A DNA stretch of 64,000 nt from IMG/VR virus record IMGVR_UViG_2645727901_000008. The stretch is one strand, 5' to 3'. The stretch is from a virus (taxonomy: Duplodnaviria; Heunggongvirae; Uroviricota; Caudoviricetes). The position numbers were made by a program, and so were the translations under genes. Of the stretch, positions 17,855 through 60,071 are shown piece by piece; position 1 is the first letter of the stretch, and every line of letters starts with the position of its first letter. The notes below the pieces were generated by a model, which was not told the origin of the DNA, ran no database searches, and saw nothing but the letters and a program-made list of their open reading frames with translations.

Positions 17855-17875
17855 ATTTTAGTTTTCTAACACAAA
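17855..17875 (+). promoter_or_regulatory. Operator-like motif (attttagTTTTCTAACAcaaa)
   Basis: Member of a motif family recurring in intergenic regions; lies 12 bp upstream of the ATG at 17887. Confidence 0.45.
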
Positions 17876-17886
17876 TCATTAGAGTT

Positions 17887-18279
17887 ATGGCGTATCGAAT
17901 CTTTGTTTCGTATAAAAATGGCGCTAAGAGCCACTCTCTGAACACAACAAGTCGCTTTCTTGTTGAGGCGCAGTTGGCATCAATTCTTGCCGAAAGTGAG
18001 ATACTCTCGCTCGCTGAACGGATCGTTATCCAGTTTTCTGGTAGAGATATACTCAATGTCCCCGCCCTCACCCCGGCCTCCGAAGTTATGGAATCAATTA
18101 AATGGCCTGTATGCGGATGTCCTGCCAGGGTTGAAGAGCCGGTAACAGCAACGCTCTACATGCCGAAAGCAGTAAGAGATTGGCTTGCTATGGTTGGTAA
18201 TGGGAAAGTCAGTGCTGGACTTCGCAAGTTAATTGAAATGGCAGATATTCCTGAGTTAAAAAACGCATGGCGACAATGA
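17887..18279 (+). CDS. Hypothetical protein
   Basis: ATG at 17887 (track starts at an upstream alternative start); 131 aa. Confidence 0.5.
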   Translation: MAYRIFVSYKNGAKSHSLNTTSRFLVEAQLASILAESEILSLAERIVIQFSGRDILNVPALTPASEVMESIKWPVCGCPARVEEPVTATLYMPKAVRDWLAMVGNGKVSAGLRKLIEMADIPELKNAWRQ

Positions 18280-18295
18280 GTAAACAAGGGACAAA

Positions 18296-18754
18296 ATGAG
18301 CCACGTTAACCCATCAAAAACACAATATCGCTTAATGCTGGCGATCGCGTCAGCTATACCAACCAGCCTGAATCCCCCGGCAGGCTATCCCGCTGTTGTT
18401 GATGATTGTTTTCAGTATTACGGAGAAGACATCCTGAGCCAGTCCAAAGCGCTCAAGCAGTTATGTAAGGCAGGTATTCTTCACTGTATCGGAGATCCGG
18501 ACGATTTTGTTGTTATGCTGGCGGATCGTGACTCTTTTCTACTGTCCTGGAAAGCCGGTGCGCGCGAAGCACGTTTGGGGAATGGTATTGGTTACATAGA
18601 CTATAGTGATTGTCCGCTGGCATTTGCTGGTGGATATATGCATTGGCATGAGCGAAATAGAGGCCGTCAGCGTCAGTATCGCTTGAGTGACTTTAACGTC
18701 TGTCACGGTTTCGAAGAAGCTGACAGCCAGGACATCTGGCTTCAGGAGCCTTGA
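18296..18754 (+). CDS. Hypothetical protein
   Basis: 152-aa ORF with RBS. Confidence 0.5.
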   Translation: MSHVNPSKTQYRLMLAIASAIPTSLNPPAGYPAVVDDCFQYYGEDILSQSKALKQLCKAGILHCIGDPDDFVVMLADRDSFLLSWKAGAREARLGNGIGYIDYSDCPLAFAGGYMHWHERNRGRQRQYRLSDFNVCHGFEEADSQDIWLQEP

Positions 18755-19074
18755 TCCCCCTTCCCTTCCCAAATCTCCCTGTTTCTTTGGTTATTCAGTG
18801 CGTTTCGTTGGTTGCATTCGTCGATCGTGCTGAATAACTGTTCAGCGTATGTCGGATACTTGTTTAACAGCACTGGCGTGTCCTCTGGCACTAAACAAGG
18901 GGAGTAATCAATCAGATTTGCCTGCGGCTTGCTGGTGGCTTCTACGGTAATTTTCACTGGCACGCTGGTTGATGGCTTTTGCCCGTTCCCGCTGCATCCT
19001 GATAACGTCATCAGGCACACGCACATCGTTAATCCCAGCACGGCGTAACGCATTTTCAAGGCGAGTGATTTCAT
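18742..19074 (-). CDS. Putative o-spanin (Rz1-like outer-membrane lipoprotein)
   Basis: N-terminal signal peptide with lipobox-like LSGC; ORF overlaps the 3' end of the i-spanin candidate in another frame. Confidence 0.5.
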   Translation of the reverse strand: MKSLALKMRYAVLGLTMCVCLMTLSGCSGNGQKPSTSVPVKITVEATSKPQANLIDYSPCLVPEDTPVLLNKYPTYAEQLFSTIDECNQRNALNNQRNREIWEGKGDQGS

Positions 19075-19381
19075 TCTGGCTTTCCTCTCGTTGTTTGATT
19101 AGGTTGGCATTCAGTTCTGCTGTTTTGCGCTGGTACTCCTTTTCCAGTGCTTTAATTCTTTCGTTTTCGGTCAGCATGGCTGAGCGAGCGTTCTCACTTA
19201 ACTGTAATGCGGTAGAAAGCGTGTTGTTCGTGCTTTCCAGTTGTGATTTTGAGTCTTCAAGCGATCGGACATACCTGATGTGTTCGATAACTGCCGTCGT
19301 TGTTCGGTAAATTCCAGAAATGGCTAAAAGCGCAATTACAATCAAAATTATCTTTTTCAAAACCATCCTCTCCAGGTTCAT
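18908..19381 (-). CDS. Putative i-spanin (Rz-like)
   Basis: N-terminal TM helix (KKIILIVIALLAISGIY) followed by a long charged coiled-coil region. Confidence 0.55.
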   Translation of the reverse strand: MNLERMVLKKIILIVIALLAISGIYRTTTAVIEHIRYVRSLEDSKSQLESTNNTLSTALQLSENARSAMLTENERIKALEKEYQRKTAELNANLIKQREESQNEITRLENALRRAGINDVRVPDDVIRMQRERAKAINQRASENYRRSHQQAAGKSD

Positions 19382-19436
19382 TTTTGGTGTTAAACATGTA
19401 CCAATTTACATCCTTTTGTGTGCCTAAGTGGTGTTT

Positions 19437-20243
19437 CTATGGTTCCTTTTTGGTGTTCTTTTGGAGCGCATCGATAACGCCTTGTGGCATGATTAAACTG
19501 ATTGCCGGACTCATTACTGCATCATCCAGTAGAGAACCAGTTAACGTGATGGCGACAGCGTTCTCTAAACCTCTGGTTGCCTGAGTGGTTGACGTTTTAA
19601 TGCGACCTGTAAGGGCTACGACACCCTCACTTGCTGAGTTAATTTCGGAGAGTAAAACTTCGGCGGCTGTCACTGCTTCCCGTAAAGCATCAATTTCATC
19701 CTGAGTAATGACTGGAGCCTGAGCGCCCCCAGCACCACCCTGTCCACCATTGCTTTCACCACCACCAGCACTTCCGGTAGCTTCAATTTTTGCGTTAATG
19801 GCGTTCATGGCGGTTTTCAGAGCATCAAGTTTTAGCGCCGTCAATGCGTCCGTCAGAGATTGCGGAATGGAAACATTCCCCATTCCCTCAACAAGGGCGA
19901 AAGCAGGTATGGGGGTCAGCTCGTTACCTTTTGCGTAGCATTCCCAGCCAATCTTCATCTGTAACAGCTCTGATGGTTTGGTGTATGGGGAAAGAGAATC
20001 AGCCAGTAATGAAGACGCTTTGCTGGCCTCATTGAGCTGTTCAGAAAAGCCAAGCAATTGAGTAGTCCAGGCCGAAACAGAATCAGGATAGGTTTTATCG
20101 GCGTGAACTATTCCCTGTATGGCGCTGGCGAGCGATGAGGCTTTTACAGAAGCTGCCCGGCTTATGGTTATAGATTCTGGTGTAGAGATACCGGCATCTG
20201 ACAGAATTTTGAAGGCTTTAACTTCACCTATTGAATCAAGCAT
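19437..20243 (-). CDS. Hypothetical protein coupled to the PAAR-like gene
   Basis: Probable start MLDSIGEVKAF at 20243, overlapping the PAAR stop (TAATG); Gly-rich linker GGGESNGGQGGAGGAQ. Confidence 0.5.
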   Translation of the reverse strand: MLDSIGEVKAFKILSDAGISTPESITISRAASVKASSLASAIQGIVHADKTYPDSVSAWTTQLLGFSEQLNEASKASSLLADSLSPYTKPSELLQMKIGWECYAKGNELTPIPAFALVEGMGNVSIPQSLTDALTALKLDALKTAMNAINAKIEATGSAGGGESNGGQGGAGGAQAPVITQDEIDALREAVTAAEVLLSEINSASEGVVALTGRIKTSTTQATRGLENAVAITLTGSLLDDAVMSPAISLIMPQGVIDALQKNTKKEP

Positions 20244-20527
20244 TATGCAACCTGAAAAATATCCTCGCCGTTGGCGATAACAGAACCACAAGAAAGCGGA
20301 TCGCCTACACAGACAACTCCCTTTCCACCTATCGAAAACCATACTCGCGTCGATACAGCTGCCCCTGGATGTGCACTGTTACCGTCAGTGTGACTGGGAA
20401 ACATGGCACCATCTACAACAACTGGCTTACCGTTAACGGTGAACCAGGGAACGGTTTCAGCTACCAGTCGCGGCGGAAATCCTCCGTGACCAGAACAAAG
20501 GGTGTCGCTGGTGGCTATTGCGCTCAT
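20243..20527 (-). CDS. PAAR-like spike-tip protein
   Basis: 94 aa with three PAAR-like elements (CSGHGG, NGKPVVVDG...H, GGKGVVCVGDPLSCGS). Confidence 0.55.
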   Translation of the reverse strand: MSAIATSDTLCSGHGGFPPRLVAETVPWFTVNGKPVVVDGAMFPSHTDGNSAHPGAAVSTRVWFSIGGKGVVCVGDPLSCGSVIANGEDIFQVA

Positions 20528-20599
20528 TCTTCACCTCCTGGTTATCCTCCTATTGTCATCACTTTGTTATTTCGTCATTCAAACGGAGAGTTAAATTTC

Positions 20600-20790
20600 G
20601 GAATATTTTTGTATTCTCAATTCGTTCTCAAATAAATCTCACTGTCAGACCATCATTCGGTGGGTGATTAAGATATTCTCAAAATAAACTCAACAATCGC
20701 TCTTTTTATCTCGTTTGGTGTGGATTTTTGGGTGCTTCTCTTTTAAAATTACATTTTGGTTCTCAAATGTGTCTCAGAAGTGGAGCAAGA
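20600..20790. repeat. parC-like centromere: repeated TTCTCAA(A) elements upstream of parM
   Basis: At least five copies of (a/g)ttctcaa within about 190 bp preceding parM. Confidence 0.5.
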
Positions 20791-20792
20791 AG

Positions 20793-21749
20793 ATGCGCAT
20801 TTTTATCGATGATGGTTCAACCAATATCAAAATGCTGTGGGAGCACGACGGGGAAACTCGCACTCACATCAGCCCTAACAGCTTTAAGCGCGGATGGTCA
20901 GCAACATTTGGTGCTGGCAAGCCATTTAACTATGTCATTGACGACGAAAAGTATTCGTATGATTTGATCTCGCCAGATGTTCTGCCGACGAATAACGTGG
21001 AATGGCAATACAGCCCGCTTAACGTCCTGGCTGTTCACCATGCCCTGCTGACAAGTGGCATTGAGCCGCAGGAAGTAGAAATTGTGGTTACGCTGCCACT
21101 GGCGGAGTTTTACGACGACGACGCGCAATACAATCTCGATAACATCGAGCGCAAGAAAGCCAGCCTTATGCGCCCCGTCACGCTGAATAAAGGCAATGTA
21201 TTCACGATTAAGAAAGTTACGGTACGCCCGGAGTCTATTCCGGCAGGAATTGGTCTGTGCGACAATCTGAACCCTGCCCACTCTGTTCTTATCGTCGATT
21301 TGGGTGGAACTACCCTTGATGTTTCAATGGTCGCCGGGCAAATGACGGCAGTTTCCCGTGTTTTTGGCGATTCGAATCTTGGTGTATCACTGGTCACCAG
21401 GGAAGTAAGGCAAGCACTTGCCAGAGCCAATACCGAAACGTCAAATTACAATGTCGATCAGCTCATTATTAACCGCCACGATGAAGATTATCTGAACGAC
21501 AATATCAATGACCCATCAGCGGTTGGTGATGTGAAAAAGGCCATTGCCGCAAGCATTGACCGTCTGCGTACCCGCGTTCTTGATGTGATTGGCGACTTTA
21601 AAGGATATACGCATGTCATGGTGATCGGTGGTGGCGCACCGCTGGTGGCAGATGCAATTCGCGAGCAAGTTAATATTCGTGATGACCGTTTCTTCGTGGC
21701 GGATGACCCGCAACTTGCTCTTGTTCATGGCCTGAAAGCAATCGGTTAA
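20793..21749 (+). CDS. parM: Actin-like segregation ATPase ParM/StbA
   Basis: MRIFIDDGSTNIK..., HISPNSFKRGW, VDLGGTTLD, MVIGGGA motifs matching R1 ParM; ATG at 20793. Confidence 0.9.
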   Translation: MRIFIDDGSTNIKMLWEHDGETRTHISPNSFKRGWSATFGAGKPFNYVIDDEKYSYDLISPDVLPTNNVEWQYSPLNVLAVHHALLTSGIEPQEVEIVVTLPLAEFYDDDAQYNLDNIERKKASLMRPVTLNKGNVFTIKKVTVRPESIPAGIGLCDNLNPAHSVLIVDLGGTTLDVSMVAGQMTAVSRVFGDSNLGVSLVTREVRQALARANTETSNYNVDQLIINRHDEDYLNDNINDPSAVGDVKKAIAASIDRLRTRVLDVIGDFKGYTHVMVIGGGAPLVADAIREQVNIRDDRFFVADDPQLALVHGLKAIG

Positions 21750-21756
21750 CGAGGTA

Positions 21757-22101
21757 ATGTCCATGTCTCAGGAACGTAAGAAAGTGATGATTTATCTTCG
21801 CCCAGAGGCTTATGCCAATGAAAAGGCGGCGAGCGAGAAGATAAAAAAACATAGCGATATGGCAAGAACCGCATTGTTGGCAGGGCTTGCGCTGGGAGAA
21901 GTCGATAGCAGGCTTCCAGGATTACTGGCTTCCCTGCTGACCGAAGACAATAACCCGGAGCTGATCCGAAAAATGCTGGCATCCTTCCTGGAACTACCAG
22001 CTGCGGTTGAGGAGCGCCCTGCCTCCATTGAGCCAGTGAAGGAGCAAGTTGTTGCCAAAAGCGCGTCGGCGCGTAATCTTGCTGATTCTCTACCTGATTG
22101 A
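21757..22101 (+). CDS. parR: ParR/StbB-like centromere-binding adaptor
   Basis: 114-aa ORF immediately downstream of parM. Confidence 0.65.
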   Translation: MSMSQERKKVMIYLRPEAYANEKAASEKIKKHSDMARTALLAGLALGEVDSRLPGLLASLLTEDNNPELIRKMLASFLELPAAVEERPASIEPVKEQVVAKSASARNLADSLPD

Positions 22102-22119
22102 TGGTCAAAACTCTATTTT

Positions 22120-22147
22120 AAGGCTGCAAATTGCAGCCTTTTTTGTT
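22120..22147 (+). terminator. Rho-independent terminator (aaggctgcaaattgcagcctt + T-tract)
   Basis: GC-rich hairpin followed by TTTTGTT directly after parR. Confidence 0.7.
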
Positions 22148-22370
22148 CCTTTTTGGTGTTAAAATGGCATCAAAGCGACACCAAATGGGAGTCGTTAATG
22201 TACTGGTGCATACTTGGTGCTAATTTAGTGCTATTCAGGCGCAAAACGTGTACCAGTATCCATCGGATTTGATGTTATACTTCCGGCATTAAGAATGGTG
22301 CTATTGCTGTACCGTTGATGTGTAAATGTGGTGCTGTTTTAGTGTAAAAATAGAGCCAAAATAAAGCCGA
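22148..22370. repeat. Repeated TGGTGCT / TGTACCAGT elements upstream of parA (candidate centromere or operator)
   Basis: Multiple tggtgct(a/g)t and gtgtaccag copies; similar elements recur at 23320-23380 and 19385-19460. Confidence 0.4.
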
Positions 22371-22373
22371 GGT

Positions 22374-23021
22374 ATGGACATGATTATCCTGGTAGCAAGT
22401 CAAAAGGGAGGCTGTGGCAAGTCAACCACCAGCGTCAATATTTGTGCCGAGCTGGCCCGAAAAAACAAAGATGTCGTCTTGATTGATGCTGATAAGCAGG
22501 GAACGGCAGCTCGATGGGCGTCAGACCGTAATTCGTCCGAAGTGACACCAGTTATTCATTGCGTCCAGAAGTTTGGAAATATTCGAGAAACTCTGCTCGA
22601 TCTTAACAATCGATATGAATACGTGGTTGTTGATACCGCAGGTCGTGATAGTAAAGAGATGCGCACAGGTATAACGGCGGCGGATATTCTATTGGTTCCA
22701 TTCAGGCCGTCTCAGCCAGATTTGGACACGCTGGCACACTTTGTTGAGGTGTTTGAAGAGGCTTTGGATCTGATGCCTAATCCCAATATTAAGGCGTGCG
22801 CAGTCTTAACTATGGCCCCGTCAAATCCGGTTGTGAATGAAGCAAATGAGGCCAAAGAGTATCTGGCAGAATATCCGCAACTGAAATTGCTGAAAACCAT
22901 TATTCGCGATCGCAAGGTTTACCGCGACTGCATGGCTGAAGGAAAGGGTGTTGTTGAGATGGATAACGGTAAGGCGAAAGGTGAAATTCAGATGTTAGTT
23001 AAGGAGTTGCTAAGTGATTAA
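22374..23021 (+). CDS. parA: ParA-family partition ATPase (small, type Ib-like)
   Basis: Deviant Walker A KGGCGKST near the N-terminus; 215 aa. Confidence 0.85.
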   Translation: MDMIILVASQKGGCGKSTTSVNICAELARKNKDVVLIDADKQGTAARWASDRNSSEVTPVIHCVQKFGNIRETLLDLNNRYEYVVVDTAGRDSKEMRTGITAADILLVPFRPSQPDLDTLAHFVEVFEEALDLMPNPNIKACAVLTMAPSNPVVNEANEAKEYLAEYPQLKLLKTIIRDRKVYRDCMAEGKGVVEMDNGKAKGEIQMLVKELLSD

Positions 23022-23298: not shown

Positions 23299-23418
23299 TA
23301 CCGATTTGATGCCTTATTGGCGTCTATCGTGTACCAGTGCAATAATGTGTCAAAGTGGTGCCATAATGGTGTTAATATACAGCCATATTGATATCAAATT
23401 GACACTGTATCGGCATCA

Positions 23419-23442
23419 AAAAGCCCCAGGCGGGGCTTTTTC
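23419..23442 (+). terminator. Rho-independent terminator (gccccaggcggggc + TTTTT)
   Basis: Hairpin flanked by A-tract and T-tract after the parA operon. Confidence 0.7.
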
Positions 23443-25920: not shown

Positions 25921-25955
25921 TGTGTTAGAAAATTCTATTCAATTATCTAACACAA
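25921..25955. promoter_or_regulatory. Two operator-like motif copies (inverted tgtgttagaaaa and direct ttatctaacaca) upstream of rdgC
   Basis: Core TTTTCTAACA family; 12 bp upstream of the rdgC start. Confidence 0.45.
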
Positions 25956-29200: not shown

Positions 29201-29228
29201 TGTCTGGAGATTGTGATTTCAATTCATA

Positions 29229-33354: not shown

Positions 33355-33586
33355 TGCTTTGGCGTTATGACTCCCTACCGCGCTTCGGCTGAAAGTTAAT
33401 CGTCAAAAGAACCTTCAACGGGAGCCGTTAGCGCGATGGATTATGTGCAGTTTGTGATTTCCAAAATAGTGTCAACCACTTTTTGTGGATTTTATTTTTT
33501 GACCGAAATTTGGCCTAAATCATGTTGATGTAGTTAATTGTTTTTATAACATAAAACTTCATTTTGTTTACATGAAGGATGGTGTA

Positions 33587-37361: not shown

Positions 37362-38288
37362 TTAACTAACAATCCAGTCCATAGCAACCATATCCTCTGG
37401 CGCTAAATCAATAGCATGGATTTTCCCATCCCGGATAGTGCGCCAGTGCTTCCTTGATCCGCCTTCGGGCCATACCCATACACCTTCAGACCATGAGGCG
37501 CGACGGCATACCGTTGCATATCCACTTCTGATCTTCTCTCTGGCGGTATGCAGTGACAGATTATCTTTTGGGATTTCCGGTAAAGGATGATGGATTGCCT
37601 GAAACAGCCCCATCTTGGGATGATACCAGCGTTTGTTGCGTGGTTCTGCCTCCGACATAACCTGCTTGAAGGCTTTCTGGAAGGGGGCCAGGGCCACAAT
37701 GGAGCGTCGCGCAAGCAAACCATCTGGAGTTAAAAACTCATGCGTATCGGTGGGAATCCGGAAAGCGTTAACCAGGTTGCGACATTTGGCTTCGGTCAGG
37801 CCACATTTCGCCGCCAGCTGGCGGTAGCCAATGTAGCCTTCCGGAATATTGCCTTTCTTTATTTGCTCGAGTGTTTCAGCGACCATCGATACTTGTGCTG
37901 ATACCTCGGCTACCTGGGCATTTACGGCGTTGATCCGGCGTTCATGCTCAAGATGCATTTGCGCCATTTCAGCCAGGATTTCGGCTTTTGATTTTAACTG
38001 TACCCGGGCATTCTCCAGTTCGCGCCAGCGGTCCACCAGCCGGGCGGTGAATTCGGGAGAGAGCTGCGCGACGACGACAATACTATCGCGCTTGCCTTGC
38101 TCGCCTTCGAAGACGTAATAGCTCGCCGGGCGGCCTGCGGTGGGCTTTTCCTCAATTTGAGGAAAAGATATTACGCCCCGTTCCGCCAGGTGTTCAATGG
38201 TGCGTTTAACGTTATCAGGGCGCTTACCTACCAGTTCCGCGATCTCAATGCTGGTCATTGTCGCTTTTTGAGAGATGGACAGATTCAT
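37362..38288 (-). CDS. Antirepressor-like protein (Rha/Ant family N-terminal domain)
   Basis: N-terminus TSIEIAELVGKRPDNVKRTIEHL...GRPASYYVFEGEQ resembles phage Rha/antirepressor domains; 308 aa. Confidence 0.6.
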   Translation of the reverse strand: MNLSISQKATMTSIEIAELVGKRPDNVKRTIEHLAERGVISFPQIEEKPTAGRPASYYVFEGEQGKRDSIVVVAQLSPEFTARLVDRWRELENARVQLKSKAEILAEMAQMHLEHERRINAVNAQVAEVSAQVSMVAETLEQIKKGNIPEGYIGYRQLAAKCGLTEAKCRNLVNAFRIPTDTHEFLTPDGLLARRSIVALAPFQKAFKQVMSEAEPRNKRWYHPKMGLFQAIHHPLPEIPKDNLSLHTAREKIRSGYATVCRRASWSEGVWVWPEGGSRKHWRTIRDGKIHAIDLAPEDMVAMDWIVS

Positions 38289-38503
38289 CAGTGCGCCTCC
38301 ACGCAGTTCATCGGCAGATTCCAGTAATTGAGGATCTCCATCGCATCAAGAGTGAAGCGAGCAGCAAAAATGCAGGGTTCTTCGGGAAGGTATGAGCGCG
38401 CCTCTGCTTCGGTAGCAGCCATGACGCAGATATACAGGTGTTTTTGGCAGGAATAGAAACGCCAGATAAATTCAGAATGAGTTGGGGTAGGGATAGTAGC
38501 CAT
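38288..38503 (-). CDS. Small protein upstream of the antirepressor (Icd-like position)
   Basis: 71-aa ORF overlapping the ant-like start; P1 immI analogy only. Confidence 0.35.
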   Translation of the reverse strand: MATIPTPTHSEFIWRFYSCQKHLYICVMAATEAEARSYLPEEPCIFAARFTLDAMEILNYWNLPMNCVEAH

Positions 38504-38509
38504 ATTGGC

Positions 38510-38688
38510 AGCCTCCTTTGACTAAGTTAAGGAGCTACCGCGTGAGGTTCCAATCTCAATGGCGGTAGCACTGACTGGGTTGGAACTACCGGCGTCAAAG
38601 GGAACCGGCCTGCCTTTCGGCAGCCCAGCCAGCACTACCATTGATCTCTGAGCTAAACGCTACGTATGGCTGTGCGATGGCATGACAC
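38510..38688 (-). ncRNA. Candidate structured leader / antisense-RNA region (c4-like position)
   Basis: Non-coding stretch with several stems (gctaccgc...gcggtagc; ggaaccggcctgcctttcggcagcc) between a terminator and the icd/ant-like genes; speculative. Confidence 0.25.
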
Positions 38689-38710
38689 AAAAAAAGACGC
38701 TTTCGGCGTC
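38689..38710 (-). terminator. Rho-independent terminator on the minus strand (gacgccgaaagcgtc + U7)
   Basis: Hairpin followed by T7 on the minus strand, downstream of ref. Confidence 0.65.
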
Positions 38711-38815
38711 TGTGTCGCCTTTGACATTATCCGGGGTTCCAATCCCGGCACCCGTTTTTCTAAGGTGCCGTAGAAATATACCCCACGATAATGCCAGGGC
38801 GCAACAGTCAGTATT

Positions 38816-38983: not shown

Positions 38984-39314
38984 TTTGACACCCCCAGCGC
39001 GAGTAAAGAATGCAGATTATCGCGTGAGTGGCGGACAACGAGTGATGGGAAAAGACAGTAGCTGTTCATAGTGTAGTGACTCCTTGCTTTCGGAGCCGCC
39101 ATCGACTGTTCCACGGTCTGGTGGCGGCGCAATAAAGGCTGGAACACCGTGAGTCAACGGGGGCTTTTCAGCCACCTATATTGCACCGCCATAGGTATAG
39201 CGGCGGCAATAATACGAAAAACTAAACAGTTTGTCTCAAAAAGTTGACCGGTGTGCCAATCGGTAGTGAATGTACATCGGAGAAATTTACAATTCAACTT
39301 AAAATGTTAGAAAA

Positions 39315-39893
39315 CTAATTTATCAATTCAATCGCCATCTGATACAACGTCATTTCATCGGCATTGTGCCGCATGAAATCTGCTTTTCCGCCTATTTTTC
39401 CGTCAGCATGAACAGGGACCAGCCAGGGATATTGTTCTCGGACCTCGGCTGGCGCTGCGTACTGGTGGTGCCATTTACACAAAGGGAGGACATATTTATG
39501 CGCGTTCTCTGCCGTTCTCCCGAAGATATGGTGCAGGGATACTACTGGGCTATGTTGTCCGTGAATATGGCAGGCAATGCAGGGGAGAGTACCGATAGCG
39601 GTCTGTATCCGGCGTTCATCAGCTGTGAGTGATCTGCCCTTCAGGCCGCGTGACGTGCGTGTTTTTTTGGGCGGAGCGGATACAGCTTTATCTTTTCTCC
39701 GCTGTTCATATTGCTTTGCTTTTTCAATTTTCTTTTGCCGATATTCAGGCGATGCGGCTTTTTCTCTCGCTCGCTGCTGCTGGCGTTGAGCTTGTTGAAG
39801 GCGCTTTGCCCTTTGTTCCTCTCGCCAGGCCGGGTCAGCCAATTTTTGCATGGCTTTTTGTCTCTGTTTCTCCCAATAGCTCTGTTTCTGCAT
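39315..39893 (-). CDS. ref: Ref-like HNH endonuclease (recombination enhancement function)
   Basis: Basic disordered N-terminus plus SRGLKGRSLTADERRIQTAIGTLPCIACHIHG...SLHHIFGRTA...LPLCKWHHQYAAPAEVREQYPWLVPVHADG, matching P1 Ref as recalled. Confidence 0.9.
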   Translation of the reverse strand: MQKQSYWEKQRQKAMQKLADPAWREEQRAKRLQQAQRQQQRAREKAASPEYRQKKIEKAKQYEQRRKDKAVSAPPKKTRTSRGLKGRSLTADERRIQTAIGTLPCIACHIHGQHSPVVSLHHIFGRTAENAHKYVLPLCKWHHQYAAPAEVREQYPWLVPVHADGKIGGKADFMRHNADEMTLYQMAIELIN

Positions 39894-39937: not shown

Positions 39938-39975
39938 AAACTGTTAGATATTCAAAATTGATTTTCTAACACAAA
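39938..39975. promoter_or_regulatory. Operator-like motifs between divergent ref and early-operon promoters (ctgttagatattc; attgaTTTTCTAACAcaaaac)
   Basis: TTTTCTAACA family; about 45-80 bp upstream of the ref start. Confidence 0.5.
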
Positions 39976-43252: not shown

Positions 43253-43276
43253 TCAAATCATTTACGCACTCAAAAT

Positions 43277-43310
43277 GCGTTAGAACATTGATTTTAGTTT
43301 TCTAACATAT
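43277..43310 (+). promoter_or_regulatory. Operator-like motifs (gcgttagaacattg; attttagTTTTCTAACAtat)
   Basis: TTTTCTAACA family, about 40 bp upstream of the ATG at 43350. Confidence 0.45.
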
Positions 43311-52844: not shown

Positions 52845-52858
52845 AGTCTTTTCTCTGC

Positions 52859-54167: not shown

Positions 54168-54223
54168 AGCACCCTCCGAAATAGGCGAGGGTACTTTACA
54201 GCAAAGATAACAATCTAAAAAGA

Positions 54224-54240
54224 TGTGTTAGAAATTTAAT
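54224..54240. promoter_or_regulatory. Operator-like motif (gtgttagaaatttaat)
   Basis: TTTCTAACA family between cre stop and the start at 54167. Confidence 0.45.
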
Positions 54241-55269
54241 TTATGAATCCATCAGGCGGCTATTAGCCCCCACAGACACGCCGCCACGGCGCAGATACCG
54301 CATAAGTGTTTCCGGTTTCTTCCAGGTTCCTTCCTGCATGATCTCCACCATAGACACCTGCTTTTCAGCCATATCGATAGCGGCCCCGACACGAGCACTA
54401 TGCCCGGTCCACGTCCGGTATCTCCCTTTGTTTGGCGTGGCATCTCTTTTATTCAGCAACACCCAGGCGTCGCTGAATATTTTCTCCATTGCAGGTGCAG
54501 TAAGGGGAGTTGTCGTAATCCTGGCCTTATTGCTACGGTGTATCGGCGGGAACAGCACCGCGTCAGGATGTTCACGAAGCCCGGAAACATCCAGCCAGTC
54601 ATTCAGCACTGCGGTAGTGCGACGGGAAAGCACCTTATCAAGCCCGGCGGCGGTCGTTATTGTCTTCGTGTGTGAAATATGTAGCGTGACAGTGTCACCT
54701 GTTTGGTCCAGATCTCCTACACGAATACGCGAGATTTCAGACATTCGCATCAGCGTATTGTATGCAACGAAGAGGAAAGCCCGGTTACGCAGGTCCACCA
54801 GCCGTTCTGACCTGGACAACAGGACGTCGAGCAGTTTCAGATCGTCCCACCGCAGCGGTATAGCCTGGCCTGTTCGTTCGCCTTTTTCCGTTGCCGCTTC
54901 GCGCCGGATGCGCCGCATAGCCAGAGAAACACTTTTATCATCCGAAAGTGGCGGAAGGCCACAATGCGAAAGCAGCATGTTAAGCATGGCGTAGTGCTTA
55001 TCAATGGTGGTCGAAGCCAGATCAGCATCATGCAGCTGAAGAAAATACTCGCGGGCCATCTCTGGTGAGATCGGGAACCAAGCGAGCTGGCGAGCGTGGC
55101 ACCATCGCGCCCAGGAGTGAAACACTAACCGGAGATCGCGCAAAGTATTCGGCGCGTAAGCCCCCTGGTCATTCATGAACCGCATAAAGTTTTCTGCGGC
55201 CTCCTGGTACTCTTTGCCAATGTTGCGCAGAAAACCACCGGAGCTGCCAGAGATAATTAATTCACTCAT
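54241..55269 (-). CDS. cre: Cre-family tyrosine recombinase (divergent Cre homolog)
   Basis: Collinear with P1 Cre with many substitutions (WARWC, LAMRRIRRE, NRAFLFVAYNTLMRMSEISRIRVGDL, WTGHSARVGAAIDMA); active-site R/H/R/W/Y-containing blocks present. Confidence 0.9.
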   Translation of the reverse strand: MSELIISGSSGGFLRNIGKEYQEAAENFMRFMNDQGAYAPNTLRDLRLVFHSWARWCHARQLAWFPISPEMAREYFLQLHDADLASTTIDKHYAMLNMLLSHCGLPPLSDDKSVSLAMRRIRREAATEKGERTGQAIPLRWDDLKLLDVLLSRSERLVDLRNRAFLFVAYNTLMRMSEISRIRVGDLDQTGDTVTLHISHTKTITTAAGLDKVLSRRTTAVLNDWLDVSGLREHPDAVLFPPIHRSNKARITTTPLTAPAMEKIFSDAWVLLNKRDATPNKGRYRTWTGHSARVGAAIDMAEKQVSMVEIMQEGTWKKPETLMRYLRRGGVSVGANSRLMDS

Positions 55270-55418
55270 GAAACTATTTAACCTCTATATACAGATGACG
55301 CTACGCAAAAATATAAAAATGACAGGGTAGCTATAAGTTAATTTTCAAAATTCAAGCCTTTGATTCGAGGCACGTATTTTTAGTGATGTCAACACTGATC
55401 ATCTACCCATGATTATAG

Positions 55419-55454
55419 TCTAACTTTAAATAATGCCAATTATCTAAAGTTAGA
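55419..55454. other. lox-like recombination site: 13/14-bp inverted arms around an 8-bp spacer (CTAACTTTAAATA-ATGCCAAT-TATCTAAAGTTAG)
   Basis: Same architecture as loxP with shared arm positions (TAACTT...ATA) and spacer starting ATG; about 150 bp upstream of cre. Confidence 0.7.
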
Positions 55455-55624
55455 AACTTAGGAATTTTTTTCCTTTCCCCGTAGATGGGCAATGCATTGC
55501 TGGCGTGGGCTTTAAGTTATGCCTGGCAGTTTTTAAGCAGAATTTTCTAAATTGGATGACAAAAAAATGCATCTTGATCCTTTACTCACCCTGTTATTCG
55601 GCATAGATTTGTCATAGTAATTTT

Positions 55625-55641
55625 ATGTTAGAAAACTAAAT
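55625..55641. promoter_or_regulatory. Operator-like motif (atgttagaaaactaaat)
   Basis: TTTTCTAACA family, 13 bp upstream of the ATG at 55654. Confidence 0.45.
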
Positions 55642-55653
55642 CGAGTAGGAATA

Positions 55654-56691
55654 ATGAGTAAGAAGTCGATCGAGAAAGAGTACAAACGGTTCCTGCAAAC
55701 CGCTGAACGGTGGAAAGAGCTGGTGGTCGCAAACTCTGTTTTCCATGATACCAGTTATGCCGGCGAGGAATTCCGCCACGTTGCACTAACACATGATCAG
55801 AATGTACTAGAAGAAGCTGAAAAGTGCCTCACAGAATGGAAAGCCTTTGTTGACTTGTGCCGTAACGCTGACGGCAAAGCGTCCAACATTGTTGAGTCTG
55901 TATATTCTCCGATCCCATTCATTATTGAGGACACAAATCAAAGCACGCATATTGTTGTGCAAAGCGCGACCACCACCCGCTCATTTACGCGCGAAAATCT
56001 GCTCAAAAAATATGATGCAATTATAAAGAAAAGCCTGAAAAACAAGATATTTTCGCAGATTGTTGGTGCACTTGAAGAAGAGCGCCGTTTTTTCGCATCA
56101 GAACCTGAAGGGGAAGTTTACCGGGCGCGCAAAGATGGATACACAGATGTAGTGCTTACAACAAACATTGAAGGCAGCAATGCTCTGTCACGATTCAGGG
56201 TAGGCGCACACGGAGCCTTAGTGTTCGCAAAACTTCCGAACACCACAGTGCCCGTTGTTAATAATGTCGGCGAACGTCGCAGCATTACTATTTATTCTGG
56301 GGTTGAGTCGATACCTTGCGGCCTGCTTGGTGACTTTAGCCTCTATCGCGTTCGCGATCTGGAGAAACACCAACCAAGCTATGTTGCGAAGTCATATATC
56401 TTGCGAAACATCGACATCCGCAATGAGAGCTTAAAGAACAAATCAGCCAAAATGCTTGAGGAAGCCGATCCGGCTATTCGCCATATCATTGAGCGTAAAA
56501 TACAGACAGCACGCGAAGCGATGGCGAGACTGAATAAAATGGATCTGGAGTTGTTAGACGTAATGATGACATCCGGAGATGACCTGACAGGCATAAAACT
56601 GACAGACGCGCGGAAAAGATACGGTAAAACCATAGAAGAACGTTACGGGTTCACTTTCTCCCAAACACAGCACGCCGCTAAACTCTGGTAA
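55654..56691 (+). CDS. Hypothetical protein adjacent to lox (candidate regulator)
   Basis: 345-aa ORF with RBS; no recognisable motif. Confidence 0.55.
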   Translation: MSKKSIEKEYKRFLQTAERWKELVVANSVFHDTSYAGEEFRHVALTHDQNVLEEAEKCLTEWKAFVDLCRNADGKASNIVESVYSPIPFIIEDTNQSTHIVVQSATTTRSFTRENLLKKYDAIIKKSLKNKIFSQIVGALEEERRFFASEPEGEVYRARKDGYTDVVLTTNIEGSNALSRFRVGAHGALVFAKLPNTTVPVVNNVGERRSITIYSGVESIPCGLLGDFSLYRVRDLEKHQPSYVAKSYILRNIDIRNESLKNKSAKMLEEADPAIRHIIERKIQTAREAMARLNKMDLELLDVMMTSGDDLTGIKLTDARKRYGKTIEERYGFTFSQTQHAAKLW

Positions 56692-56696
56692 TCACA

Positions 56697-56725
56697 AGCC
56701 CCGCATTGCCGGGGCTTTATATATC
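56697..56725 (+). terminator. Terminator hairpin (agccccgcattgccggggct + TTATATAT)
   Basis: Between convergent 55654..56691 and pacB. Confidence 0.6.
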
Positions 56726-58225
56726 CAGATCTGGCATTTCCACATCTGCAAGAACCTGATCGCGGAAGGTAGCCATTTCAGCGCCGATATCTTCATTAGC
56801 AGGAACATAGTCCACCAGCATTGTAAAGCAGTAGGTATCCCATCGGTCAGGTGATTTGATGTTCAGCTTTTGCCGCATGTGCTCCTTGCGCATCATCGCC
56901 ATCTTCCCTTCTTCATTAAGTAAAAAGGGGATTTTTGACGCTTGCTCTGCCGTTTTAGGGTCACTGTCTATTCGCATACGACCTGACTTTATGGCATCAC
57001 GAGCCATAATATTTGCGTAGGCACGTTGGTTAACAAAACGCTCCTTGTCTTTGTTCGAAAACATGGGTTTCCCCCACCGAATACGTACCGGATTAGCCCC
57101 ACGGCGCACCAGCTGCGCACAGGTATCTGAACCAAAACCGTCTGCGTCAACCGCGATTGTAATATTCGGGTATTTATCCGGCGTGCATTCGTTGTATATA
57201 AAGTCAGCAAAAGCCAGCGGGTCCATAGTCCCTGGCATTTCCATTATCTTAAAGTTAACAACGCGCCGCTTATTCCTGTGACCTGACACCTTGCAGATGT
57301 TAAGGACCGACTTGTCTCGCCCGTTCCCAACGTCAGCTGTCGCTACCCACCCCCAATTTTTCTCCAACAACACCTTGCGCCGCGCAGCGCGATCGCATTC
57401 ATCACGACCAAGCAAATAGCCGTTAATCTCCCGAGGGAACTGACCAAGCACCTTAACCATATACTCAATAGAATCGCGCCCGCCATATTCCAGGAGTTTC
57501 TGCCTGATGAATTGTGGTGTGACGAACGGTGATTCTTCTGAGTTAAGAACAATTGCTGTCCAGATCCCTTTCGGGTTGTCTGGGGTTTTAGCTTGAGAAT
57601 GGTGCGAATCGTAGAAATAACCACTTGGCCTTGTTGGCTGGGATAGCATCAACATTCGGTTATCTTCTTCAGTAAGAGCACCGGTCATTACGCCGATCGC
57701 CTTATCAGATATACCAGATGCTTCATCCAGAATTAGAAGCAAATGTGCCGCGTGTTCCCCCGCCAGCGCTTCTTCGTTGCCGAGTCGATAACCTTTGCAG
57801 AGAACTTCCCAAATCCCCTTACGGGAGCGCTCATAAAACATGGTGTCAGAGAGGACAAAATAGGTCTGCAACCACCCATGACGCTTAACTGCATTCGCCC
57901 AATACTGTTTAACGTATTTGAATACGCCTGTTTTTACCTGGCCTATCTTGTTAGCAACAATGATGACACGGGCATCGGGGAACAGGATCATAAAAATCAA
58001 CAGCAACATCGCGGTAAGGGACGACTTCCCCGTTCCGTGTCCGGACGTGACGGTAGTCCTACTCCCCGTTTCCTGCACTGACTGAATGATCTGCTGCTGC
58101 TGGTGGGAGGGGAACATCCCAAAAATATCGACAACAGCCTGGGTAAAGTTGTAGCGGTATTTGATTACCATATCGCGCCAGCGTGGATCGCTGGTGACGC
58201 ATTTAATCTTGCGCCCGCCAGCCAT
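56717..58225 (-). CDS. pacB: Terminase large subunit (PacB-like)
   Basis: 502 aa, Walker A-like GHGTGKS, downstream of and overlapping the PacA-like gene. Confidence 0.75.
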   Translation of the reverse strand: MAGGRKIKCVTSDPRWRDMVIKYRYNFTQAVVDIFGMFPSHQQQQIIQSVQETGSRTTVTSGHGTGKSSLTAMLLLIFMILFPDARVIIVANKIGQVKTGVFKYVKQYWANAVKRHGWLQTYFVLSDTMFYERSRKGIWEVLCKGYRLGNEEALAGEHAAHLLLILDEASGISDKAIGVMTGALTEEDNRMLMLSQPTRPSGYFYDSHHSQAKTPDNPKGIWTAIVLNSEESPFVTPQFIRQKLLEYGGRDSIEYMVKVLGQFPREINGYLLGRDECDRAARRKVLLEKNWGWVATADVGNGRDKSVLNICKVSGHRNKRRVVNFKIMEMPGTMDPLAFADFIYNECTPDKYPNITIAVDADGFGSDTCAQLVRRGANPVRIRWGKPMFSNKDKERFVNQRAYANIMARDAIKSGRMRIDSDPKTAEQASKIPFLLNEEGKMAMMRKEHMRQKLNIKSPDRWDTYCFTMLVDYVPANEDIGAEMATFRDQVLADVEMPDLDI

Positions 58226-59589
58226 TAATCATCCTCCGGCGGTTCTATCGCGATATCATCATCTCCGGCGTCATACCCTGCATCAGATACATCATAATCA
58301 CCGTAAATTTCAGCCGTTGCCGAAGGGTCAATATCCAGCTCTTCGTCGTTGGCCTCGAATTCTCCAGCTTTACGCTCGCCATTGCGGTCGTAATCTCCGC
58401 ACCCCAATTCTTCAACAATGGTTGCCACATCCGCCCGGCGCTCTGCCAGCCATTGCGGATGGTTAGCCTGAAGCGTTGCAAACTCCCTTGCCTCTTTGTC
58501 CAGCTGTTCATCATCAACATCATTGACGTCAGAAACAGGTGGTTCGAGAAGAGTGATAGCTTTCGCCGCGCGCGCCGCGAGGATAGCCGGGACGCTGACC
58601 CCCTGGCGCTCGATGTATTCAGCAACACCGATATCATCCAGTTCCTCGCGCTCACGCATACGTATAGCGGCGGCGATAACTCTGGCTGCGCGTGCGTCAG
58701 CGCCAATGCGATATTCAATCTCTTTGCCACGCTGTTCGGCCTGTAGGCGTGCTAATTCGAGTTTTTCTCTGGCCTCAGCCTCTTTGAATGCTTGCTGGCG
58801 AGCGCTCTGACGAAGCTTTTCATCCCCCTGTCGCAGCTTTTGTTCGGACTGATATATAGCTGCCAACCTACTGATAAAATCATTCATGTAGTAGGCCGCG
58901 TCACTGATTAGACCGAGAAGACGCTGCCCAGGGTGCATTCCTTCTGGCTCTTTATCGCCCAAGGCGTCTATTTCCGCCTGTAGGCGTTCGGCCTCCTGAT
59001 CAACAATGCTTTGATACTGAAGTGCGCGCTCTTGCGCCATTTGAATTGCTAACCGCAGGTGTTCTTCTGCGCCGTTCTTCATCATATCGCGAGCCACATT
59101 CGTAGTGGGCAATGTGGCACGCTGCACAGCACCGTCAGGGATCATTGCAGAAGATCCCTCAATTTTTGGGGCGCTTTTATCTTCTTCGGGGATCATTTTC
59201 GCCATTTTTTCGCGCAATGATCTCCTGACAGATTCTTTTATCTCATTGTTATTATTTGCATTATTTTCATGATCCGAAGTTTTCTTTCTCGGCATACTTC
59301 GGAAAGAACCTGCGCCCTGCGAATTGTCAATTTCTGTAAATTTTGTTTTTTCTGCACCCTCTTCCAGCTTTTTTGTTGCTCTTCCCGCCCGTTTTTTTTC
59401 AGGTGATTTGGTGCTTTTTTTTGTTGTCTTTACCTGCGACCGCACCTCATTTTTTTTCATATTGAGATGCTTTCTGGCTGTATTGAAGCTAAGGCCATGC
59501 TCCTCACAGTATTCCTTTACAGTGATCCCTTTTTCTTCACGCAACGCTATAAAGCGGGCGCGGTGCTCCTCCCAATTAACCAGACTCAT
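58225..59589 (-). CDS. pacA: Terminase small/pac-recognition subunit (PacA-like)
   Basis: 454 aa, N-terminal HTH-like region, charged coiled-coil middle, acidic C-terminus; contains a GATC cluster. Confidence 0.7.
   Translation of the reverse strand: MSLVNWEEHRARFIALREEKGITVKEYCEEHGLSFNTARKHLNMKKNEVRSQVKTTKKSTKSPEKKRAGRATKKLEEGAEKTKFTEIDNSQGAGSFRSMPRKKTSDHENNANNNNEIKESVRRSLREKMAKMIPEEDKSAPKIEGSSAMIPDGAVQRATLPTTNVARDMMKNGAEEHLRLAIQMAQERALQYQSIVDQEAERLQAEIDALGDKEPEGMHPGQRLLGLISDAAYYMNDFISRLAAIYQSEQKLRQGDEKLRQSARQQAFKEAEAREKLELARLQAEQRGKEIEYRIGADARAARVIAAAIRMREREELDDIGVAEYIERQGVSVPAILAARAAKAITLLEPPVSDVNDVDDEQLDKEAREFATLQANHPQWLAERRADVATIVEELGCGDYDRNGERKAGEFEANDEELDIDPSATAEIYGDYDVSDAGYDAGDDDIAIEPPEDD
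59139..59275. other. Candidate pac site: cluster of five GATC-containing hexamers inside pacA
   Basis: GATC at 59140, 59153, 59191, 59219, 59271 within about 135 bp; P1 pac is a Dam-methylated hexamer cluster inside pacA. Confidence 0.35.
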
Positions 59590-59978
59590 AAAGCAACACC
59601 ACGCTTTTTAACGGCGGCATTCCACAGCTTATTCGCCATGTCCACCAGCTCTCGTTGCTCTTTTCGCGCCTGTTCGACTGATTTCCTGCTACAGTTTTTA
59701 ACCAGTAAGCTACCGTATTCAGGCGTGCGCCCGCGCACCTTGAACTGATATCCGTTCAGACCATGTAGCCAATATTTTCGTGGATACACACGATCATCCA
59801 GCTCACAGATTGCCCTGCTTGAACGAACAAAATGACGAATGATGTTAGTTACACTTACTCGTGAAACATGGAGATGAGGGTATTTTTCTTTGGCGAGAGT
59901 GGTAATTTCAGTGACTGTCAGATAGCAGTCAGCCCTGATCATGATATCCGCAATTTCTGCGCTGCTGATTTGTTCCAT
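59586..59978 (-). CDS. Small protein upstream of pacA (Lpa-like position)
   Basis: 130-aa ORF overlapping pacA start; operator-like motif upstream; product from position only. Confidence 0.35.
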   Translation of the reverse strand: MEQISSAEIADIMIRADCYLTVTEITTLAKEKYPHLHVSRVSVTNIIRHFVRSSRAICELDDRVYPRKYWLHGLNGYQFKVRGRTPEYGSLLVKNCSRKSVEQARKEQRELVDMANKLWNAAVKKRGVAL

Positions 59979-60054
59979 TAATCCCCCGGGCAGGAAATGA
60001 CCGAGGGGATGATAATGAGAATGTTAAAACTGTATAGACTGGTAAAAAGATGAT

Positions 60055-60071
60055 TATATTAGAAAATTAAT
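60055..60071. promoter_or_regulatory. Operator-like motif, weaker copy (tattagaaaattaat)
   Basis: Partial TTTTCTAA family member between 59978 and 60087. Confidence 0.3.

Follow-up and report, generated by a model that had tools for sequence, protein, structure and literature searches.

The stretch of DNA analyzed here (the window, 64,000 nt) is a P1-related plasmid prophage resembling phage D6, to which it is 94 to 96% identical over the shared parts and with which it has an identical arrangement of c1, dre/rox, pacAB, and lpa. Prophages of this D6-like plasmid type are common in E. coli, Salmonella, and Shigella. An asymmetric repeat of about 17 to 20 nt (aatTtAaTTT-TCTAA-CAcA) recurs along the window; a 20-nt matrix recovers 9 strong and 4 weak sites at nine loci, all of them outside genes or overlapping nothing but a stop codon, and every one has a D6 counterpart. 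The same matrix finds 13 strong sites in full phage D6, and outside the window D6 has equivalent sites ahead of repL and pmgR/pmgS. GenBank records of D6 (AY753669, MF356679) annotate c1 and no operators, and in the literature searched, which left two D6 papers outside its reach, no paper pairs "D6-like" with "operator" and none has the motif in a phage context.

Sites and neighboring genes

The first site, AATTTTAGTTTTCTAACACA (17854-17873, plus strand, score 29.3), is the same in D6 (54200-54219) and lies in the gap beside the capsid gene, 14 nt before the ATG at 17887 of a homologue of D6 orf52 (function unassigned). It is followed by a paired putative operator of inverted, overlapping halves at 25921-25940 (minus) and 25935-25954 (plus), with scores of 24.9 and 22.4 and a D6 pair at 64114 and 64128. 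The hrdC-methylase operon opens with hrdC/rdgC (start 25909), 12 nt downstream of this pair, whose position matches that of P1 Odmt, which controls uhr-hrdC-dmt. A weak candidate, TTAATTGTTTTTATAACATA (33534-33553, plus, score 14.3), whose core is kept in D6 at 72194, lies between the divergent mat and simB-like genes.

Three further loci surround ref and the early genes. The single putative operator TAAATTAGTTTTCTAACATT (39303-39322, minus, score 26.2) has an exact core and overlies the ref stop codon, with the next small open reading frame (ORF) about 200 nt downstream. It faces a minus-strand isrK-like/C4 RNA-icd-antirepressor (immI) region; the best predicted promoter nearby, TTGAAT-17-TACATT, begins 6 nt downstream of the site. 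In P1, too, the ref stop codon is covered by an operator (Omat), and another (Oc4) stands ahead of c4. Rfam matches and D6 gene names delimit the immI-like module at 37362-38768 (minus strand throughout), with an isrK-like RNA (38690-38768, Rfam isrK, 62.7 bits), a C4 antisense RNA (38558-38645, Rfam C4, 77.1 bits), icd (38288-38503), and the antirepressor gene (37362-38288), the last two named from the D6 annotation. The pair at 39940-39959 (minus, weak, 14.2) and 39954-39973 (plus, strong, 27.5) occupies the space from which ref (start 39893) and the early operon (orf88, ATG 40011/40014) diverge, contains the −35 hexamers of predicted promoters in both directions, and has P1 Oref and Oppp as counterparts. 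Another pair, at 43276-43295 (minus, 17.4) and 43290-43309 (plus, 28.4), is kept in D6 and in the related locus L007 and lies between ppp and a pdcB-like gene (start 43350), spanned by a predicted promoter, TTGATT-17-TATTTT.

The remaining sites adjoin dre, c1, and lpa. A single putative operator at 54224-54243 (minus, 26.8) overlies the dre stop codon (dre is the homologue of cre), with the orf117-dut operon 57 nt downstream; a site is present at this dre/orf117 junction in eight related loci (L006, L007, L008, L009, L010, L013, L014, and L015). The putative operator at 55624-55643 (minus, 27.0) is in reverse orientation to c1 and ends 11 nt upstream of its start. Farther upstream, about 100 nt before c1, lies the degenerate site TTTTCTAAAT (55543-55552, plus), which is kept in four D6-like elements, is a full TTTTCTAACA in the relatives L013, L014, and L015, and has as neighbors a possible −35, ATGACA (55556-55561), and a conserved −10-like TTTACT (55581-55586). 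The last putative operator combines a strong minus-strand half at 60055-60074 (core TTTTCTAATA, 25.7) with a weak plus-strand half at 60069-60088 (10.7) before lpa (59586-59978, minus, start 59978), the late promoter activator gene, so named in the D6 annotation and with Pfam BPP1_LPA recorded for the gene of relatives at that position. In L007 both halves of this operator are good sites, and its P1 counterpart is Olpa.

An earlier sequence-only reading of the window had described most of this series, and each of its coordinates does hold a site, including the copy at 60055; it missed 39303-39322, in spite of the exact core there, and the weak 33534-33553. Its gene labels need revision, since 17854 precedes the orf52 homologue rather than ref, and the genes it called lox-adjacent and pacA-upstream are c1 itself and lpa. 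The spacing it gave, with sites 10 to 80 bp ahead of gene starts, is right for most of them, at 11 to 14 nt (c1, hrdC, orf52), 38 to 57 nt (early operon, pdcB, ref, orf117), or 77 nt (lpa), and fails at 39303.

Recurrence and conservation of the motif

The core TTTTCTAACA occurs in 6 exact copies, compared with 0.19 expected from dinucleotide shuffles, none of which reached 6, and the matrix returns 9 matches with a score of at least 20, compared with 0.02 in shuffles. Leave-one-out matrix scores of the sites range from 14.4 to 27.6. The motif can also be found without prior choice: when 8-mers that recur between intergenic segments are counted without bias, TTTTCTAA/TTCTAACA rank first, and the same procedure run on P1 recovers the proven C1 operator of that phage. 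Seven copies of TTTCTAACA are present, six of them in ORF-defined intergenic DNA, where about 0.10 would be expected in 7.2 kb under a Markov model. The seventh (17863) falls in the 5′ extension of an ORF at 17845, upstream of the D6-annotated start at ATG 17887, and there are no further copies in approximately 57 kb of coding DNA. The motif is in this sense excluded from coding DNA, apart from two sites that overlap stop codons.

At four loci the sites form overlapping inverted pairs with a constant offset of 14 nt, which places the TCTAA cores 21 bp apart and is invariant in the window, D6, and L007. Among four D6-like elements, the site over the dre stop codon has 17 of 20 positions invariant, compared with 38 of 61 in its flanks, and the site before c1 has 18 of 20, compared with 63 of 185 in the rest of its intergenic region. 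Footprinting over all loci gives a modest difference (84% versus 76% invariant positions, p = 0.013); the close relatedness of the elements accounts for this. A search of related loci found no conserved stretch with a nine-sequence alignment and, with four sequences, only one new locus.

TTTTCTAACA is kept at the same junctions in elements whose C1 is 90, 81, and 72% identical to that of the window (D6, L006, and L007) and in those at 52, 50, and 45% (L013 to L015). Where C1 identity falls to 22 to 29%, the same junctions carry TCTAAGG (Citrobacter), TCTAAA (Pantoea), or TCTAATT (Serratia), and P1 operators carry GCTCTAAT, so that a TCTAA core is common to all; an Enterobacter kobei relative (L011) has no clear operator motif. 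Window C1 and D6 C1 differ at 10% of residues, and their operators are the same.

The resident C1 repressor and its predicted fold

The repressor gene, which the sequence-only reading did not identify in the window, is c1 (55654-56691, plus, 345 aa), adjoining one of the sites and located between pacB and rox/dre, as in D6 and P1. Its product is 90% identical to D6 C1 and 20% identical to P1 C1 (283 aa). In a reciprocal tblastn, P1 C1 matches the window with an E value of 8e-6, a profile built from non-P1 relatives matches P1 C1 at 77.5 bits, both proteins belong to phrog_1678, and relatives carry Pfam PF27008 (Phage_P7_repressor_C1). By the NCBIfam equivalog NF041318 (cutoff, 500 bits), P1 C1 scores 607.5 bits and window C1 23.1 bits, below the cutoff; a local Pfam-A search and PDB sequence searches with window C1 gave no match. 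By these sequence comparisons, window C1 is a remote but secure homologue of P1 C1, a distant member of the family and a different protein from P1 C1.

An AF2 model of C1 (pLDDT 85, pTM 0.56) has as its only significant structural neighbors four Tus-DNA structures, at a TM score of about 0.4; a viral fold library gave no match to the model. Neither the PDB sequence search nor a comparison of the C1-family profile with Tus (probability, 0.3%) revealed sequence similarity between the two proteins. Tus recognizes a long asymmetric site as a monomer, it represses its own gene through TerB, and TerB ends 11 nt before the tus ATG. In E. coli, Tus-Ter is a replication fork trap, whereas C1 is a transcriptional repressor. 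The c1-proximal site looks TerB-like by eye (TATGTT..AACTAAA), but local alignment is no better than with shuffles (p = 0.05 to 0.9), and we rejected the idea that the operators are Ter-like. We tentatively propose, at somewhat less than even odds, that the C1 repressors of P1-like plasmid prophages adopt the Tus fold and, as monomers, grip a long asymmetric site, and that their operators have an invariant TCTAA core in common, with the flanking bases determining which immunity applies: CA for the D6 group, T(A) for P1, and GG, A(A), and TT for the Citrobacter, Pantoea, and Serratia groups, respectively. On that view, any such plasmid could be assigned to a C1 immunity group from sequence, and the long-unexplained asymmetry of the operators and the monomer binding of P1 C1 would have a structural basis. 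Confirmation of the predicted Tus-like fold would give the C1 family its first structural account of asymmetric-site reading.

Proposed C1 regulon and comparison with P1

We consider it very likely that the repeats are operators of the resident C1-type repressor encoded at 55654-56691. The sequence-only reading had taken them for dispersed operators of a repressor of this kind, and the D6-like nature of the element, the C1 homologue, the P1-like positions, and the single and paired forms all fit that proposal. In the plasmid-prophage state, C1 would bind each asymmetric site of about 17 to 20 bp, as a monomer by analogy with P1, and at four loci two molecules would occupy the inverted sites. 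A site would overlap, or stand directly after, each of the promoters of ref, the hrdC-methylase operon, the long early operon (with its internal pdcB promoter), the dre-proximal operon, and the C4-icd-antirepressor module, and a site also precedes lpa. With the D6 sites before repL and pmgR/pmgS included, one repressor could shut off lytic replication, early genes, and, via lpa, all late genes. The operator at 55624-55643 probably mediates autoregulation of c1; together with the degenerate site at 55543-55552, which may serve as its partner, it would provide two convergent sites about 82 bp apart flanking the probable c1 promoter. Induction or superinfection would act through the antirepressor under C4 RNA control.

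The strongest competing explanation, which we nevertheless regard as improbable, is that the motif is a promoter element or activator site (for an early-gene activator or a modified polymerase) and not a repressor site. Most strong sites are co-oriented with the downstream gene, and the AT-rich arm often contains TTGATT or TTGAAT, the best predicted −35. At four loci the best sigma-70-like predictions, under a permissive model, place the −35 hexamer in this arm and the core in the spacer, which fits operators that overlap promoters; a strict sigma-70 consensus scan around the sites finds fewer matches than in shuffles and is uninformative, so the overlap with promoters rests on the permissive model. 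Against a promoter or activator role, the c1-adjacent site points away from c1, the D6 sites at 9065, 10314, and 21259 are opposite to their neighboring genes, exact inverted overlapping pairs occur, the distance to the start codon varies from 11 to about 200 nt, and the positions mirror proven repressor sites of P1. Late promoters, moreover, have a different sequence: AAATCACAA followed by 7 nt and a −10, found before mat, the gene 7 operon, capsid gene 23, pmgB, and R. P1 late promoters, which drive morphogenesis and lysis operons, have a −22 box, AAGTGACTT, at a fixed distance from the −10, of which the window, with its own variant, has one poor match only. We also rejected the TTTTCTAACA sites as late promoters driven by Lpa, as they precede early and regulatory genes.

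Binding by some other protein of the element or host (antirepressor-type, DnaA, IHF, or H-NS), with C1 acting elsewhere, is a shade less probable still. Covariation across lineages does not distinguish C1 from other proteins, all of which diverge along the same lineages, and TTATCTAACA bears a loose likeness to a DnaA box (TTWTNCACA; no more than 7 of 9 positions, by inspection). Yet the only other recurrent intergenic motif fits the late promoters, leaving none for C1; a host-factor site would not vary at constant positions across Escherichia, Citrobacter, Pantoea, and Serratia elements; and the TCTAA core ties the sites to operators known to bind P1 C1. We give little credence to the repeats being conserved module-boundary junctions for recombination in mosaic phages, with no regulatory role: several do lie exactly at gene or module junctions (the ref and dre stop codons and the ppp/pdcB gap), but that view gives no account of why the cores of the inverted pairs are always 21 bp apart, why the sites are confined to regulatory genes, why one stands in the c1 leader, and why the sequence changes by lineage while the positions stay constant. 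Chance recurrence of an AT-rich word in intergenic DNA of only 43.7% G+C, where the 10-mer with one mismatch is only about twofold enriched, can practically be dismissed in view of the counts (6 exact copies versus 0.19, 7 of the 9-mer versus 0.10, and 9 strong matrix matches versus 0.02) and the conservation of the sites across elements.

As C1 operators, the sites have their closest parallel in P1 and P7, in which a homologous repressor acts at many asymmetric sites dispersed over a plasmid-prophage genome of about 90 kb. P1 has dispersed 17-bp asymmetric operators and places repL and lpa under C1 control (PMC8546580). We compared the sites with the operators annotated in P1 from experimental work: in both systems, sites lie at ref, hrdC-dmt, c4-icd-ant, the early ppp operon, lpa, and c1, full D6 adds positional matches to P1 OrepL and OpmgR, and both systems have single sites as well as overlapping inverted pairs. 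They would also share the logic by which C1 blocks lpa and Lpa drives late promoters. The recognition sequences differ, as had been suspected from the sequence at the outset: D6-type sites have TTTTCTAACA with a 5′ AT-rich arm, P1 sites have ATTGCTCTAATAAATTT, the P1 consensus has no match in the window at up to 4 mismatches (22 in P1), and P1 lacks strong matches to the D6-type matrix. In the pairs, D6-type TCTAA cores are divergent and 21 bp apart, whereas those of P1 Oban are convergent and 13 bp apart. Direct alignment of P1 and D6 operators is ambiguous: anchoring on TCTAA keeps the orientation to genes and inverts the pair geometry, and the reverse alignment does the opposite.

The two circuits do not appear to be copies of each other. 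Since ssb and ban are absent from the D6 annotation, nothing corresponds to P1 Ossb and Oban. Among accessory regulators, the window has genes for C4 RNA, icd, and the antirepressor, and tblastn detected no homologue of Coi or Lxc in the window or D6, although small, fast-evolving proteins could escape such a search; this apparent lack suggests a lysis-lysogeny decision wired differently from that of P1. A more distant likeness is to mycobacteriophages L5 and L1, whose repressor recognizes many asymmetric "stoperator" sites across the genome (PMC1934351). The protein families, hosts, and sequences of those phages are unrelated to the D6-type ones. Many stoperators lie between genes of a single operon, and most share one orientation relative to transcription; four D6-type sites (25921, 39303, 43290, and 54224) resemble them in lying between co-directional genes.

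On the available sequence evidence, the repeats are in all likelihood an ordinary feature, the expected control system of P1-related phages with a recognition sequence other than that of P1. The operator sequence would define the C1 regulon of D6-like prophages and make their promoters and early genes annotatable. It would also provide a second, orthogonal repressor/operator pair beside the Dre/rox recombinase already taken from D6. We predict a single C1 specificity, unlike that of P1 and P7, for all D6-type elements whose C1 is at least 45% identical, which would matter for superinfection immunity and for whether P1-like plasmids can coexist in a cell; about 150 plasmid-collection records encode a C1 repressor of the window type.

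Recurrent intergenic sites and their P1 counterparts

The window carries six copies of TTTTCTAACA, where 0.19 would be expected, and the surrounding sites, aligned in one orientation, share roughly 17 to 20 nt (aatTtAaTTT-TCTAA-CAcA). A 20-column matrix trained on nine sites (leave-one-out scores, 14.4 to 27.6) returned nine matches scoring at least 20, compared to 0.02 in dinucleotide shuffles, and four weaker matches, for a total of 13. Three of the four weak matches are offset by exactly 14 nt from a strong match on the opposite strand, forming overlapping inverted pairs; the scan places such pairs, with sites on both strands, at 25921-25954, 39940-39973, 43276-43309, and 60055-60088. The sequence-only reading had located its sites correctly but overlooked two, of which that at 39303-39322 has the exact core and that at 33534-33553 is weak. 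It had also held that equal motif frequency in coding DNA would count against operators; the motif is instead excluded from genes, because all 13 matrix matches lie outside them (two overlap a stop codon only, those of ref and dre) and no copies of TTTCTAACA occur in the ∼57 kb of coding DNA beyond one at 17863, upstream of the orf52 start as annotated in D6. The other six of its seven copies are in ORF-defined intergenic DNA, which totals 7.2 kb and would be expected to hold about 0.10. When 8-mers shared between intergenic segments were counted without regard to the motif, TTTTCTAA/TTCTAACA came out on top; the same count run on P1 as a positive control recovered the known C1 operator.

Site positions were compared with a richly annotated P1 record that lists C1 operators and the genes they control. 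The pair at 39940-39973, between ref and the early operon ending in ppp, is equivalent to P1 Oref and Oppp, and the site at 39303-39322, which lies over the ref stop codon like P1 Omat and faces the immI genes, is equivalent to Oc4. Further equivalents are Odmt for the pair at 25921-25954 (before hrdC and methylase genes), Olpa for the pair at 60055-60088 (before lpa), and the Oc1/coi group for the site at 55624-55643 (before c1). Full-length D6 has additional strong sites before repL and around pmgR/pmgS (P1 OrepL and OpmgR), and one between repL and a second icd-antirepressor module; that second gene pair is annotated in D6, outside the window. Three window positions lack a P1 counterpart: 17854 (before orf52), 43276-43309 (before pdcB), and 54224 (before the dut operon). 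Pair geometry also differs, with TCTAA cores separated by 21 bp and facing outward in the window but separated by 13 bp and facing inward in P1 Oban. The D6-type matrix found no strong match in P1, and the P1 operator consensus found no match in the window. A C4 antisense RNA (38558-38645, minus strand, 77 bits in Rfam) and an isrK-like RNA (38690-38768, minus strand, 63 bits in Rfam) immediately precede icd and the antirepressor gene, and the set constitutes an immI-type module, as in P1. Enrichment, P1-matching positions, mutually absent motifs, and a c1 homologue support the initial proposal of dispersed operators for a P1 C1-type repressor of different specificity. We infer binding from these sequence features, and the sites are very probably operators of the resident C1.

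A strict sigma-70 consensus scan around the sites was uninformative, and the promoters described here are the best predictions of a weighted sigma-70 model rather than mapped promoters. For the early operon (predicted −35 at 39958-39963), ref (39955-39950), and pdcB (43288-43293), the predicted −35 falls inside the AT-rich operator arm, with the TTTTCTAACA core in the spacer. The best predicted promoter for the immI transcript begins 6 nt downstream of the 39303-39322 site, a placement resembling that of P1 Oc4, which abuts its −35.

The c1 gene, its control region, and probable operators across lineages

The repressor gene, which the sequence-only reading had not identified, lies in the window as an ORF at 55654-56691 (345 amino acids) whose product is 90% identical to D6 C1. 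Identity to P1 C1 is only 20% (reciprocal tblastn with P1 C1 against the window, E = 8e-6); a Pfam search with a local copy gave no match to window C1, and the NCBIfam equivalog model of P1 C1 scored it at 23 bits, far below the cutoff of 500. Homology to P1 C1 is nevertheless secure, because P1 C1 reaches 77.5 bits with a profile restricted to D6-type, Pantoea, Citrobacter, and Serratia relatives, P1 C1 and all relatives belong to phrog_1678, and database relatives of window C1 carry PF27008 (Phage_P7_repressor_C1).

The interval between c1 and rox, the site of the recombinase Dre, is highly diverged among four D6-like elements, but two blocks are conserved. The first consists of the operator and a ribosome-binding site adjoining the c1 ATG (18 of 20 positions invariant, compared to 63 of 185 elsewhere), and the second, TTTTCTAAA(T), lies ∼100 nt upstream of c1. 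Relatives whose C1 is 52, 50, and 45% identical have a full TTTTCTAACA as the upstream block, which converges on the downstream site across 82 to 95 bp, with a conserved CTTTACT between them that is likely a −10. Two conserved sites flanking a likely −10 suggest that c1 is autoregulated from both. Autoregulation of P1 c1 is reported to use several operators and DNA looping. The window rox (55420-55451) differs from that of D6 by a single arm substitution (ATTATCTAAAGTTA versus ATTATTTAAAGTTA), in common with the D6-type relative L006, and contains a near-consensus promoter (TTGGCA-16-TATAAT) facing dre.

No homologue of the P1 antirepressor Coi or corepressor Lxc was found by tblastn in the window or in whole D6, and the rox-c1 interval leaves no room for coi; Lxc was likewise not detected in a population study of D6-like plasmids (PMC6799933). 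Since the P1 lysogeny decision is set by C1 together with both of these proteins (PMC8546580), whereas homologues were not found here, the D6-type decision circuit is probably wired differently.

Sorted by identity, the C1 homologues of the plasmid collection form classes of 100, 90, 81, ∼71, and <30%. TTTTCTAACA is kept with C1 from 90% to 45% identity (D6, L006, L007, L013, L014, and L015), at the same junctions: the recombinase gene 3′ end, c1, lpa, pdcB, and pmgS/R. In a Citrobacter plasmid (C1, 29%) the top intergenic 8-mer is TTCTAAGG, with sites upstream of rdgC and c1, in the gap separating ref from the early genes, and at the recombinase gene 3′ end; a second Citrobacter contig, with C1 93% identical to the first, has the identical motif. 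Equivalent junctions carry TTCTAAA(A/T) in a Pantoea plasmid (C1, 29%) and TGTC..(N7)..TCTAATTA in a Serratia plasmid (C1, 22%). No clear operator motif was found in one Enterobacter lineage. TCTAA is common to five lineages including P1 (ATTGC-TCTAA-T), with differing flanks, and the top motif-blind 8-mer contains it in four of five (P1, the window, Citrobacter, and Pantoea; ∼0.8% of all 8-mers do). This comparison shows a lineage-specific factor at conserved positions and does not single out C1, because all proteins diverge along these lineages; the presumed assignment to C1 rests on P1 precedent. The Pantoea and Citrobacter loci are very strongly enriched in the Chi sequence GCTGGTGG, with single 9-mers that include it reaching up to 16 copies in 41 kb (0.3 expected).

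Predicted fold of C1

An AlphaFold2 model of C1 from 11 family members (mean pLDDT, 85; pTM, 0.56) was compared with the PDB by Foldseek, and the only significant matches were four Escherichia coli Tus-Ter complexes (E = 1.4e-7 to 3.3e-6, probability 1.00, ∼305 aligned columns, TM 0.37 to 0.43); the next-best match had E = 0.07. A viral structure library gave no match, sequence and profile comparison of C1 with Tus gave no signal, and no connection between the two appeared in the papers searched. Tus binds a long asymmetric site as a monomer and acts at TerB, which ends 11 nt before the tus ATG, to repress its own gene. P1 C1 is likewise a monomer binding asymmetric operators, which a Tus-like mode would fit. 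The apparent similarity of the operators themselves to TerB was not significant. We regard a Tus-like fold, predicted from the model, as a lead with about even prospects; the joint proposal, a TCTAA core with specificity-setting flanks read by a repressor of Tus-like fold, is somewhat less likely than not.

Probable late promoters and relation to D6

The possibility that the TTTTCTAACA sites are themselves late promoters was rejected, as a separate motif precedes the morphogenesis genes and TTTTCTAACA the early and regulatory ones. P1 late promoters have AAGTGACTT upstream of the −10, a pattern absent from the window, where a second recurrent motif consists of AAATCACAA, exactly 7 nt, and a −10-like hexamer. 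All copies are on the minus strand, 12 to 108 nt upstream of genes: at 33453 before mat, 17791 before capsid gene 23, and 1781 before R (positions matching P1 LPmat, LP23, and LPs, respectively), and at 29212 before the gene 7 operon and 9157 before pmgB. TGTGATTT recurs in 11 intergenic segments of full D6. The AAATCACAA sites are probably Lpa-dependent late promoters of D6-type phages. Like P1, the element keeps two signal sets apart: repressor sites accompany the early and regulatory genes, lpa included, and Lpa-type promoters accompany those for morphogenesis. In relative L015 (C1, 45%), AAGTGTGAAG/CTTCACACTT leads the recurrent intergenic words and resembles the P1 late-promoter box more closely than the D6-type box does.

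Megablast groups the window with D6-like plasmid prophages of E. coli, Salmonella, and Shigella and with phage D6 itself, at 94 to 96% identity over common parts. D6 is a distant P1 relative with its packaging and immunity region in identical gene order; AY753669 (D6) names pacB, pacA, lpa, c1, the recombinase gene dre, and its site rox, and MF356679 (full D6) gives P1 homologues for most genes. Window position 55654 corresponds to D6 coordinate 227, the c1 start. This kind of system is already known from textbook P1 biology, and annotation of D6 c1 dates from 2004. Neither record annotates the D6-type operator sequence, which is also absent from the literature searched, though a prior description is possible because the two likeliest papers lay outside that search.

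Four tRNA genes lie on the minus strand of the window (61512-61584, 63115-63187, 63195-63278, and 63287-63360), where the matching D6 region is annotated with three on the plus strand; the window differs from D6 here. Iteron-like repeats, ATTGAGGG(c/t)(a/g)ATTTTTACA(c/t)C, at 9209 (plus strand), 9365 (minus), and 10303 (plus) sit either side of a repA-like ORF (9461-10249) and probably mark the plasmid replication origin and control region.
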